The translations under genes were made by a program, and so were the position numbers. The notes under the pieces are model-generated. The model ran no database searches and was not told where the DNA came from. It saw only the letters and a list, made by a program, of their open reading frames with translations. This document shows, piece by piece, positions 22,401-28,400 of a stretch of 64,000 nt of DNA (the stretch's first letter is position 1; each line of letters starts with the position of its first letter). Source of the DNA: Schmidtea polychroa (Eukaryota); contig CM097886.1 in assembly GCA_044892525.1 (NCBI GenBank), forward strand, positions 40,610,001 through 40,674,000, given 5' to 3'.

Positions 22401-25400
22401 GTCTTTCCGGTTTTTACATAATCGATAATTTGTTTTAATTCCGCGTCCTCTTGTTGGTCCTTTCGTAATTGACAGAAATCCAAATCTTCCGCTACTATTA
22501 AGCATATGCGTTGCATTTCTGAATCCACCAAATCTGGGAAAATAAATCTTGACATACAATCGGCGTTGGCATTTGCTCTTCCCGCTTTGAATTTTATAAA
22601 TGGGGAGTATTCTTGCAATTGCATGGCCCATCGCATCAGTCTACTGGACGCTTCTTTATGTTGCCCTAACCACACTAATGGTTGATGATCTGTGGTTATG
22701 CATATCTCATGTCCCCATAGTAAATATCGGAAGTGTTTGATAGCTTGTATTATAGCCAATGCTTCTCGTTCTGTTACCGAATAGTTCTTTTCGTGCTTTT
22801 TGAATGTTCGACTGTAATACCCGATTACTCTCTCTTTTCCCTCATCGTCTAATTGTCCCAGAATCGCGCCTGCCGCGTACCCGCTTGCATCCGTTGCCAA
22901 TAGAAATGGCTTCTTAAAATCTGGGTGTACGAGGATAGGTGCTTCGATTAGTTTATCTCTCAGCGTTTCGAACGCCTGTTGTTGTTCTTTTTCCCAAATG
23001 AACGAAATATCCTTCTTTACTAATTCCTGGATTGGTTTTGCAATTCCTGCATAATTTTTGATAAATTTGCGATAGTATCCGCATAATCCTAGAAATTCCT
23101 GAACTTGGGTGACAGTTTTCGGTGCTGGACATAGTTTTATTTTCTCAATGTTTCTTGGATCTGGCTCCTTTCCTTTAGCTGACACTATGTGTCCTAAAAA
23201 CGTGACTTTTTCCTTTGCCCAATCGCATTTTGATGGTTTGAGTTTGAGTTTCCACTGTCTTAATCTAATAAATACGTTTCGGATATCTTCTAGATGTTGT
23301 TCAAATGTCGCTGAATAGATTAGTAAATCATCAATATATACCATACATTGTTTGATTCCATGGGTGACAAAGTTCATACACCGTTGAAATGATGCTGGTG
23401 CGTTGGTCAGTCCAAATGGCATTTTCCTGAATTGATATAGATCTCGTCCCAACGTGAAAGCTGTTTTCTCTTTGTCCTCATCTTTGACTTTAATCTGCCA
23501 GTATCCACTTTTTAGATCTAAAGAAGTAAAATATGCTGCCCCTTGCAACATCAATAACATCTCATTGATGTCCGGCAATGGATAGGTATCTCTCTTGGTT
23601 ACCGCGTTTAACTTCCGATAATCGATACAGAATCGTTGGGTGCCATCTTTCTTTTTCACCATGACCACTGGGAATTGCCAAGGTGAGCAACTTGGTTCGA
23701 TTACTTTTGCGTCCAGCATCTTTTGTACTTCTGCTTCGGCTATTTCTTTTTGCATTTCTGCTAGCTTGTATGGTCTTAATGCAATTGGAGTTTCATCTAT
23801 GAGGGGTATTGCATGTAGGGTAACATCGCATGTACCCAAGTCTAAGTCTGAGATGGCGAATATATCTTTATATTCTACCAACAATCGGTGTAATTTTTTC
23901 TTTTCATCATTCGTCAACAACATACTATCTATTGTCCATAATTCATCATCTTTGATCATCTCGTTGGTCACTTTCGGTAATTCTATGTCCATCATTGGGG
24001 TCAATCTTCCCAATTTTTCGTTCTCATAAATGATTTTGTCTTCCTCTTCGAAATTCGTGATGTTGAGCGGTATCACTCCTTCTTGGTTTATTGTGATTAT
24101 TTCTCTTGCGAGTGGTAATTCTCGTCGCTTTTCGAATGACTTGCTTGGTTCAAAGATAACTTCTCCTTCCATACCCGTATCCACTTTTATCTGACAAATC
24201 ATCTGCGATTTTGCTGGTACTATTATTTTTTCTGGACATCTGATGACTGCATTCATTTTGCATATTCTACCGGTTTTGTCTTTTAAACACATGGTTGTTA
24301 AGTCAATTACGACTTCTTTTAACAATTCTGGCATCAAATCCGTTCCGATTATGCATGGTACGCTAAGTTTTGGTATTACTGCCAAATACGTTTCAATTTC
24401 GTTGTCCTGGTATCTCAATGTAGTCCACCATCTTCCGACCACGTCCACTGTTTCTTTACTACATGCTATGATGTGAATTGTTGTTGATTCGATATCCTTC
24501 CAGTGTTTACTGGGAATTTGATTAATCGCTATCGCTGATACATTAGCTCCTGTGTCTATCATAGCATTGGTTTCTTTACCATTGATTTGAATCATAACTG
24601 TTACTGCTGGACCTCCAGGTAGACTCATTGCTGCGATTGTTCTTACGTCATCTGCTTGATCTACACTTTTGGTACGTCGTGTTGGCATATAATGCATACC
24701 GGGTTGACTCGGTAATTGCGGATACATATTTTGTGTCATGGTCAAAGCTGCTTGTGGTCCCACGATATCCGGTGGTATATAGCTTCCATTGGCGATCCAG
24801 GTGTTTGTCTTTTCCTTTTCCCAATATGGTGCCGTTTCCATTGGTTTTTCGTTTGGGTTTCTGTTTGGATAAAGACATTTATCGTTCCCGTTATCATCGT
24901 CGTCACTATCGCTGTTAGATGATTGGCTTCTAAATCGGTCCAAGAATTTTGGCTTATTCTTTTTCAATTGTCGTCTTGTTGCTTCATCGTACATTACTTT
25001 CCGGAATCGTCTGCCTACTTCCTCGTCGGTTCCTTTAATCTTTGTTAATATTTTAATCAATCGCTTTATCCGATGAATGTCTTTTGAGTGGCCATGTAAT
25101 ACCATGGTCTTAGCTAAAAATGGTAAGAAGCCTACTATCATTTTCCAGTTAACTTTCTTTTCCCGCTTGTATATATCGAAACAAGCTAACATTTGTGTTA
25201 GTATTACTCTGACTATCTGAATTATGAGTATGATCCCTAATATCCCGGCCATCATTTGTCCAAAAACTAAGAATCTTCCCCACATTGCTTTCATCATGTT
25301 TGACGTAGCTTGTTGAAAATGGTCTGGCGATAATAGCAGCTCGTAATTCGGGCCTGATTGATAATTTGTTCCCCCCGTTATTGTAACCATATTAGACAAA

Positions 25401-28400
25401 ATGGATTCTCGTCTGGCTGGGAAGAGTACGTTAAGTCGTGCTGTTTCTAGATCTTCTGGGGAATACATACCACCGTTTGACACGTCTATAGGTTTGAAAT
25501 CCAGCTCTGTGGCGAGTTCTATTAATCCAAATTTCTTGGGCTCCTCGGATATGGTTTTTCCCGGTAACATCATCCATTTCCCATCGGGCCTTTCATATAA
25601 AGGTCCGTATGCATTAGAACAGTTAAAGAGATTTGGGTAGAAACCCACTGGATTCATAATTCTAGTGACTGGTTGGACGAATCGATTTTGTCCTTTATAA
25701 CGGATTTCTAATTCATTTGCACATCTCTTTTCGGGTAGTATGGATTTTTCTGGCATTCGTGCATACGTCTTGGTACACTGGTATGTGTACATCACTTCTC
25801 CTACCATTCTACCAAAGTGTCCATCTGGTAATGGGAGTGATGGCATCGTGTTATCTGGGTGCGTTATCGCAATAGCTAGCTTTGTTTTCAATATTTCTTT
25901 ATTCAATGAACAATCGTTTTGTATTAGATCGTAATATACTTTTTGCAAGGTCGTTTGTCCGCGATGAAATAGAAAATCCATTTTATTATTTGCATATAAG
26001 TATAGTTTTACGTCCTCCGTTGCTATCTTTCCCACTGCTCTATCGATTATTTGTCTCGACATATAGATACCTGCGTAATTGGTTTTATATACTATACTGT
26101 CACATTTGGTGGTTTCTTTCTCTTTGATAAATCTCATACCTAGATCTGGATCGTCTGTGATTAATGCTGTTGGTGTCTTCTGCGTTGAAAGTCTCTTTTC
26201 TCTGGGAGATGGTGGCATTGGTTTTCCATTTCGCATTCTCACTCTGTCGTTTCCATCCTCGTCGTTCTCGTTCTCATATATTTCTCCTTTTACTTCATTG
26301 AACAAAGCACTTTTTAACAGTTGGAGTCGGCATTTTTGGGTATTAGCTTCATAGATTATAGTTGATACTCCTGTCCTGCATACGTTTTCTGTAGCTTTAC
26401 ACGCTGGGTTGGTCTTCATTTGGTAATTATTTGCGTCAAATTGCGCTTCGTATTCTTTTAATTCGACCGTGTAAGACTCGATCACTACAACTCCCGATAT
26501 TACCTCGCCTCGGATCGTATACGTACCTCCGTTACATGACCCATCTGATGATTTTACTTTTCCGGATACGTAAACACTTTCGGTTTTAATCATTCCAGTT
26601 TGTCCGTGAATTGTCACTCCGTTATGCATTTTTAGCGCTCCGGTTCTAAATAGCTCTTTACAATCCTCTCGTTGTATTGATACGATTTCCTTATCCAGAC
26701 CGGGTAGTATAAGAGTCGAATACGAATATTGTCCACAGTAATATGCGAGTACCTTTTTTGATACTACGCATTCCCTTGCTTGCGTTCTGATGAAATCTGA
26801 TTCTTGATATACATGGTAAGTAACTTTTGTTCTCACGATGTCCAATTTGTTGGGTGAGGCTTGTCTGCATTCTTCTATGTCTCTCAATGAGTATTTATCT
26901 CTCATTATCATATTATCACAATCGTAGATGGTGAAACCTGTTGCTCCACTTGTGCACAACATCCATATCATCATAGTCATCATTAACGAATTTATTGATG
27001 CTTTTCTGCTTGCGGGATCTTTCATCGGTAGTTCCCATTCTAGTTCATTTAACAGTTTTTTCAATCTAACTTGCATCGACCTTTCTTGCTCATTTTTCCG
27101 TGGCGCTTGTATCAGTCTTCTCCATCCTCCGGCACGAATAATATGTGGTTCAATAGTATTCTCTATGATTGAAACGGTCATTTCCACATGATTTGCAAAC
27201 TGTTTATTTGGTATTTTCCTCGCAGCTAGTCCCATCAAATTATACATCAAATAAGTGATTACCACTAGGTGATGTTCGTCATCATTTGCATTTGTCGTGA
27301 GCTGCTCAATCACTCTCTTTGTTTCGTCCCAATCCGTTTTGGTGGTTTTCGTTTTCTCTTTGATTAACTTTGGGATTATCCCCGAAATGGTGTGCCATAA
27401 TTGTCTAGCTTCCGTACTGGCTACTTTCCGTTGCCACAAACGTCTAAGTTGTGGGTTTGTTATTATTAACATATCTTTTAACAATTCTCGTATCCATTTT
27501 TCTCCTCTTTCGATCGTTGTTTGGGCTTCCTTTAGATCCCATACTATTTTATCCAATTTTTCTAATCGAACTTGCCCTTGTTCTTGCTTTAATTGTTCTT
27601 TGGTTTTGAACTCAGACTTTTCTCCTTGTTTCTTCGGTCTTCCTTTTGCCCGTTTTTCCATCATCGTTCCGGCTTCTCTGGTATTTTCGTAATTCGGATT
27701 TCTTTCGTTATCCGTTCTGGGTAATGAGCTATCGTTATTTCTTAGCCACTCATTCCATTCGTCTATTATTTTGTCGGTTTGACTTTCTGGTGTTACTTTC
27801 GTTGGTTCTCTTTGCTTCTGGAATTGTTCATCCGTTTCGGTTTCCGTAGTATTGTCGATGATTTCTTTGATGTTCAGTTTCGTTGGTTGTTGATAACTCG
27901 TTGATGGCTGGTTATTAGTCCACATTTCGGCTCCTGTCGGCCATCTCACTAATAGCGGTGATCTTTCTCCTGGTTCATCGTCACTATCTTCCAGGATTAT
28001 CTCTTCAACTTCTTCAGTTTCATTAGATTTACTTGGTGCTTTGTTCGGACTTGGAGTACTCAAACTGCCTTTTGTTGGTTTAATAATTTTACTTTTCCTT
28101 TTTAACGGTTTCCCCAACGTTTCTGCCATCGTTAATACATTTGTCTCTTCCAATCTCATGGGTGTTATCCCGACGTCTGCATTATCGTCTAGTGATTTTC
28201 CGAACAGTTGCAGATGGAATGGAGTTTCATATGCTAATTTCTTTTTTAATTCTCTAATTTTTGTTGTTGGATGCACCTCTAGTTCCTCGATGCTCTTGTC
28301 CGGATACTTGATTCGGATGTGATACCTCTCCTGGGTGTCTTGTGCCCATTCCTGATTTCTCCATTTTCGAATAATTTGTTCTAGCTGTTCTGGATACCAT

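Follow-up and report, generated by a model that had tools for sequence, protein, structure and literature searches.

A predicted class III envelope protein encoded in frame between Gag and protease of a giant Burro-type Ty3/Gypsy element in Schmidtea polychroa

The genome of the planarian Schmidtea polychroa contains a complete, 30.3 kb Ty3/Gypsy long terminal repeat (LTR) retrotransposon of the giant Burro type, in which an envelope gene (G) is embedded between Gag and protease in a single polyprotein frame. The element lies on the minus strand of a window of 64,000 nt (GCA_044892525.1, contig CM097886.1, positions 40,610,001 to 40,674,000); coordinates below are positions in this window, and residue numbers are those of the 4732-codon polyprotein frame. 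The envelope is predicted to be a class III fusogen and probably serves as the entry protein of enveloped particles. In planarian Burro elements, env has been described as sharing one frame with its neighbours, a Bcl-2-like domain on one side and the protease on the other (PMC6431247, 2019), and gB-type GAG-ENV-POL elements have been reported from nematodes, bryozoans and flatworms, including six in Schmidtea mediterranea that are present in 1-215 copies (PMC13524379, 2026). These published in-frame elements overturn the premise of the original prediction for this DNA that env is always a separate open reading frame (ORF) 3' of pol. Because the arrangement is already published, the present analysis adds a family, not a principle. 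It also supports a functional envelope, through selection as strong as that on Gag and a class III model of high confidence, and offers a testable explanation of the way in which one frame could yield a cytosolic Gag, a luminal Env and a cytosolic Pol.

The polyprotein frame is open from stop to stop (17933-32131), with its first Met at residue 116 (31786), and the envelope segment (26995-25180) corresponds to residues 1713-2318. Upstream of the envelope, the frame encodes Gag (30878-31633), with a capsid domain (167-260; PF03732, E 3e-9) and three CCHC knuckles (367-418; PF00098, E 9e-10), then up to three weak ubiquitin-like stretches (about 781-852, 954-1038 and 1269-1338; 28115-29800) and, directly before the envelope, a weak Bcl-2-like domain (1599-1670; 27122-27337). 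Downstream, an aspartic protease (24323-24598; PF00077, E 3e-8) has its DTGA at residue 2526 of the same frame, as had been predicted, and is followed by reverse transcriptase (RT, with YIDD), RNase H and integrase in Ty3/Gypsy order (21716-23659; Pfam). The best PDB matches of the RT-RNase H region were yeast Ty3 RT/RNase H (E 2e-89), and a BEL/Pao-specific family was absent from the 18 Pfam matches. The domain order and the Ty3 match agree with the predicted lineage and gene order: the element is a Ty3/Gypsy LTR retrotransposon with gag, env and pol in one frame.

The envelope begins with a putative internal signal peptide (1713-1732; 26936-26995), found by hydropathy, which ends in GATG before FTIYDC. 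Its cleavage is suggested by hydropathy and by an equivalent layout before YDC or FDC in relatives. The ectodomain (1733-2282; 25286-26935) comprises 550 residues with one N-glycosylation sequon, at N2170, and was assigned to the class III fusion proteins by the structure model described below and by PF24664 (Monjiviricetes_fusion), which matched far above chance (E 1.8e-72; 244.8 bits versus a cut-off of 27), in agreement with the relationship that profile comparison had been proposed to check. The predicted motifs YDC (1736-38), YCG (1798-1800), GEV-Y-QC (GEVMYTYQC, 2111-19), C-EL-Y-G-F-P-TRI (2137-58) and REKR (1977-80) were all located in the translation. The description of the ectodomain as Cys-rich amounts to 14 cysteines in 550 residues; all 14 are invariant in 6/6 rows of the family and in 14/14 loci, and they are at least 90% conserved across 111 aligned rows. 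The predicted transmembrane anchor was likewise found (about 2291-2311; 25199-25261), at the strongest hydropathy peak of the frame, near residue 2293. It is followed by a second conserved hydrophobic stretch (2329-2346; 25094-25147), absent from the original prediction and either a membrane-surface helix or a second span, which falls below the level of a transmembrane candidate on rough hydropathy scales. A comparable pair of transmembrane and hydrophobic stretches is present in stand-alone glycoproteins.

The predicted furin-type REKR motif is present, but the site is not conserved. It lies in a variable, low-confidence loop (26192-26203), where R-x-K/R-R occurs in 4 of 10 sister-subfamily loci (five more have only a dibasic pair), in none of five distant relatives and in 2 of 99 well-covered homologues. 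A furin site as a feature of the family was rejected on these counts, and furin cleavage of the envelope is doubtful because REKR is not conserved. The site is reported as not always conserved in gB-type errantiviruses (PMC13524379).

The final structure model, built from 111 aligned rows, had a mean pLDDT of 90.8 and a 48-residue central helix, and every top PDB match listed for it was a herpesvirus gB (best E 1.4e-13, TM-score 0.46). It replaced a first model from 10 rows, in which only residues 50-200 were confident. The first model matched GP64 and thogotovirus Gp, and its best structural matches among viral proteins were qin-, chu- and xinmo-like glycoproteins. In VIA-align, domain I of the first model matched herpes simplex virus gB (Z 7.2, root-mean-square deviation (rmsd) 4.3, 131 aligned) and Chandipura G (Z 6.2, rmsd 4.1, 117 aligned); 9/9 of the top rows were class III fusogens, with Z values that are middling by the tool's own note. 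A PDB-chain sequence search with G gave no match up to E 10. Thus, the envelope is predicted to have a class III (gB/chuvirus-like) fusion-protein fold, as anticipated, whereas the label of a chuvirus-type glycoprotein was too narrow, since the top structural matches are divided among qin-, xinmo- and chu-like viruses. With herpesvirus gB, rhabdovirus G, baculovirus GP64, thogotovirus Gp and chuvirus G it would share the predicted fold, an extended fusion domain, a long central helix and a C-terminal anchor. It differs from them in its identity of only ~10% to solved structures, in its single sequon and in its location inside a Gag-Pol polyprotein, where theirs have their own gene.

The element belongs to a family of many near-identical copies. 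In this genome of 781 Mb, the best 74 of 2816 candidate matches were scored; all 74 were near-identical in G, and 45 of them lay within a 4732-codon frame (counted by hand). Exact 22-mers were counted genome-wide 114 times for G, 164 times for RT and 166 times for the LTR end. Twenty RT-matching loci were fetched because they lacked the exact G word, and 16 of these retained the G region. Env-less derivatives as the source of the RT surplus (164 versus 114 words) were therefore rejected for these 16; the other four were truncated copies. Two of the truncated copies end at nearly one point between protease and RT (24177-24180), with differing flanks, and one of these two adjoins an LTR-and-PBS-like stretch of a diverged family (PBS, primer-binding site). 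Two intact-frame copies lie 26.2 kb apart (contig C2, 177689684 and 177715896), a distance that fits a tandem pair with one LTR in common.

That the frame is open across G is in itself no proof of anything, because stops in G would also kill Pol, and the envelope could be a decayed passenger that is open only through its position in the Gag-Pol frame. We therefore turn to pairwise ratios of nonsynonymous to synonymous divergence (dN/dS) in 10 of the 16 loci, which were chosen via the exact RT word, so that RT values are biased. The ratio was 0.027-0.054 for the ectodomain in nine loci (one was saturated) and 0.026-0.066 for Gag; the ectodomain is under purifying selection as strong as that on Gag. 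Because dN/dS is about 0.05 at dS near 1 and the cysteines are invariant, selection acts on amino acids and not merely against stops, and no long overlapping frame was found that could explain it. A decayed passenger is thus extremely improbable, and the pattern of substitution indicates that the envelope is probably functional.

What the function consists of is a separate matter. G might be expressed and needed, but to anchor Gag and Pol to the membrane and to serve as a scaffold for their assembly, or only for local cell-to-cell passage, with no free infectious particles. The transmembrane anchor and the second hydrophobic stretch are the best-kept part of G, conserved like RT: the transmembrane region is 92-100% identical in all 10 loci, residues 2283-2347 (25082-25285) are 100% identical in 6/10 sister loci, of which three have a local dS of 0.8-0.9, and the same residues are 92% identical in a family with an ectodomain identity of 56%. 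Further points on this side are the modest hydrophobicity of the fusion loops and the fact that copy number rises within one genome, for which an extracellular stage is unnecessary. On the other hand, the entire 550-residue ectodomain with its 14 Cys is selected as strongly as Gag, and a complete class III fold would be superfluous for a mere anchor. We consider a role restricted to anchoring or local passage unlikely, and an entry protein of enveloped particles remains the favored interpretation. With respect to expression, BURRO1 transcripts in S. mediterranea are reported to be under PIWI control (PMC8532177). Here, contigs of one of two runs that may be RNA, their nature being a guess, cover all 30 bins; such contigs show neither level nor splicing and are evidence neither way.

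The original prediction regarded the envelope as an independent capture of a chuvirus-like glycoprotein by a Ty3/Gypsy lineage and considered such glycoproteins to be known mainly from BEL/Pao elements. Anakin has been tied to Pao elements (PMC7642597), but 114 arthropod gypsy elements with an Anakin-like glycoprotein have since been reported (PMC13524379), so the restriction to BEL/Pao no longer holds. The mosquito BEL/Pao element Anakin resembles the present element in carrying a chuvirus-related glycoprotein on an LTR element and differs in its backbone, which is not Ty3/Gypsy, and in its host phylum. If this Gypsy family had captured a chuvirus G recently and independently, that would fit the structural matches, of which chu-, qin- and xinmo-like glycoproteins were the best among viral proteins, and an RT that is Gypsy rather than BEL/Pao. 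The relatives of G point the other way. Stand-alone glycoproteins are ~18-23% identical to G, versus 30-47% for the in-frame Gs of other elements. In a FastTree phylogeny of 107 rows, the 18 rows labelled as element-borne (elements or fragments) formed one group (local support 99) apart from the 89 others, which are mostly unnamed; 4/18 lacked a protease in the record, and their closeness is in part built in, since the query profile derives from these families. G thus shares a Pfam family and a fold with chuvirus glycoproteins and groups with element-borne Gs in this mostly unnamed comparison set.

At least three other distant families with an equivalent layout are present in the S. polychroa genome, with Gs 36-38% identical. 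Trees of G and RT (17 rows, all from families of this genome; of 19 fetched loci, three with an incomplete G or RT were left out) had the deep family split in common (100/100 each) and placed an intermediate family alike, with shallower forks unresolved. A profile search with G returned 1918 representatives at E <=0.001, the best of which were long proteins. When 16 homologous proteins, chosen mostly by length and rank, were scanned, 11 had a protease after G in one frame and five of these also had RT. A word-index protein search gave no match at similar length and two matches among longer proteins, and a viral-contig search gave no relative. An ancient association of glycoprotein and element has also been argued in PMC13524379. 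Because element-borne Gs group apart from stand-alone glycoproteins and the G and RT trees agree at the family level, the in-frame envelope appears to be an old trait of an element lineage, with no donor identified, and a recent capture is very unlikely. The predicted capture event can stand only as a deep one; it is not fresh, as in-frame Gs group together at 30-40% identity. Among the related polyproteins, seven appear to have more than one protease-like domain (two or three) downstream of the envelope, and one Gypsy env-pol polyprotein is labelled as a protein of a Flavobacteriaceae metagenome-assembled genome, which is probably animal DNA in a bacterial bin.

How one frame could give rise to proteins on both sides of a membrane can be proposed from general knowledge of topogenesis in the endoplasmic reticulum (ER). 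Gag and the ubiquitin-like and Bcl-2-like parts would be translated in the cytosol. The internal signal peptide would direct the chain into the ER only after Gag had been made, and a cut by signal peptidase would separate Gag from Env with no need for the viral protease. The ectodomain would fold in the ER lumen, and the transmembrane segment would stop transfer, leaving protease, RT and integrase cytosolic and tethered to the Env tail, from which the viral protease would release the enzymes. At the end of the frame, a C-terminal signal and transmembrane pair could yield a second, small surface protein. Env would trimerize, join budding particles and fuse them with the membrane of another cell.

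A more far-reaching proposal is that the element is an actively spreading, infectious, retrovirus-like agent of flatworms, whose capsid, class III envelope, enzymes and second surface protein come, as in flaviviruses, from a single polyprotein that spans the membrane several times and is cleaved by the signal peptidase of the host, and whose Pol is packaged through the tether to the Env tail instead of as Gag-Pol. We offer this only tentatively and think it somewhat less probable than its opposite. Packaging by such a tether is a route that the cited literature, in the portions available, does not describe. Should particles prove infectious, these elements would provide an animal model of regeneration with natural vehicles for cell entry, and they would be an extant case of a non-retroviral LTR element that bears a gB-type envelope. 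The literature covered on planarian virus-like particles and on the Burro env polyprotein (subscription journals lay outside the coverage) contained no test of processing or infectivity. In the main text of PMC13524379, the words 'polyprotein', 'in-frame' and 'splic' were not found, so processing is apparently not treated there.

Several observations weigh against an envelope that is processed and acts in entry as proposed. Processing and infectivity, as set out above, are inferences from sequence. If the stretch at 2329-2346 were a true second span, Pol would be placed in the lumen, a topology that would need splicing or a second start. The gB matches of the final model have an rmsd of 10-12 Å (best about 12 Å) at 10% identity. 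The original prediction named absent fusion loops or a missing cysteine framework as grounds for dismissal; the 14-Cys framework is kept, whereas the loops are modest and variable among relatives. Candidate fusion loop 1 is GQYSY, with two Tyr, at a hairpin tip, and loop 2 is polar; one sister family has no Tyr in loop 1, and aromatic residues occupy the loop-1 positions in no more than a third of 99 homologues. In PMC6431247, the Burro env gave an HHpred match to gypsy Env and was linked to the F proteins of baculoviruses and paramyxoviruses (class I); the class III assignment made here and in PMC13524379 is at variance with this. The accompanying domains are also less than firm. All ubiquitin-like stretches fall below the Pfam cut-off (third, ubiquitin E 0.003; second, ubiquitin-like families E ~0.1; first, none), as does the Bcl-2-like match (PF00452, E 0.014-0.08). 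A Bcl-2-like match was found at the equivalent place in one related polyprotein (E 0.001), with a similar position in relatives; the region itself had no PDB sequence match. Finally, the sequence preceding the 3' LTR (12885-12920) shows no purine-rich tract.

Burro/GYPSM1 was compared through its published description (PMC6431247). The likeness extends to size (>30 kb, long LTRs and one ORF of about 4,700-5,100 amino acids (aa); here 30.3 kb, 4110-bp LTRs and 4732 codons), to a Gag with three CCHC knuckles and ubiquitin-like and Bcl-2-like parts, to env in frame between a Bcl-2-like domain (weak here) and protease, and to a cargo of ankyrin repeats, TRAF/MATH and RING. In the element described here, the TRAF-like protein has a downstream ORF of its own, whereas the Burro MATH domain belongs to ORF1 in S. 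mediterranea and to an upstream ORF in D. tigrina. In addition, the present element has no BIR match, its ORF has 4732 codons versus 4873 in Burro, and no Pfam match was obtained for the dUTPase-like region that Burro is reported to have between its protease and RT. The description of Burro linked its env to gypsy Env and mononegavirus glycoproteins and gave no fold class. Smed_errantivirus_1-6 (PMC13524379) are alike in gB-type env and equal order, with coding spans of 14.5-18 kb, and have in common the eight cysteines of domains I-II and the motifs YQESDF, GMRF and TNY. None of the six is highly identical; the nearest, number 5, is about 55% identical over some 185 residues, by eye. A second family of the S. 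polychroa genome differs from Smed_errantivirus_2 at 4/251 positions, also by eye. Judged against these six, the element is a further family of the Burro, or gB-type GAG-ENV-POL, kind.

The ends of the element are intact. The 5' LTR (34966-39075) and 3' LTR (8775-12884) are each 4110 bp long with TG...CA ends, are 99.98% identical by self-BLAST, with one mismatch, and are flanked by a 4-bp target-site duplication, GTAT (8771-8774 and 39076-39079). An 18-nt primer-binding site (34941-34958) pairs perfectly with the 3' terminus encoded by a host tRNA-Pro(TGG) gene, extended by CCA. Because the LTRs differ at 1 of 4110 bp and the target-site duplication and perfect primer site are present, the element is complete and young. 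The gap between primer site and LTR is 7 nt; such gaps are usually 1-3 nt. In the host genome, tRNA-Pro(TGG) genes occur in a tandem array with a period of about 475 bp (contig C1, about 130.90-130.95 Mb), and the tRNA-Pro 3' pattern has 2269 exact matches across the genome; a tRNA gene was confirmed at two of them but not at four other loci. Each LTR contains a 257-codon frame (9309-10082 in the 3' LTR, with its copy at 35500-36273 in the 5' LTR) with no Pfam match.

Within the polyprotein, the integrase is followed by ankyrin repeats (19613-20863; PF12796, E 1e-17) and by a C-terminal module (17933-18946), in which hydropathy revealed a second signal-like stretch (4396-4416) and a transmembrane segment (4663-4683) on either side of a Cys-containing domain. 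This domain had no Pfam match over cut-off, and the module is possibly a second surface protein of an unassigned family. Upstream of the polyprotein, an accessory ORF encodes a RING finger (34138-34644; PF13920, E 7e-11), and ~75-bp units form a tandem array (33010-33557) in the long 5' leader between this ORF and Gag. Five accessory ORFs lie 3' of the polyprotein (13113-17799): one of 128 aa, a TRAF-like ORF of 478 aa (RING to MATH; 15939-17375; PF21355, E 3e-27), two coiled-coil-like ORFs (368 and 239 aa) and one of 222 aa that has signal-like and transmembrane-like stretches. Outside the element, on the plus strand, a 226-codon Cys-rich frame with no Pfam match (48655-49335) ends beside an N stretch, and a frameshifted hAT-type transposase lies at 50491-52860 (DUF4371, E 3e-11; hAT dimerisation, E 8e-5).

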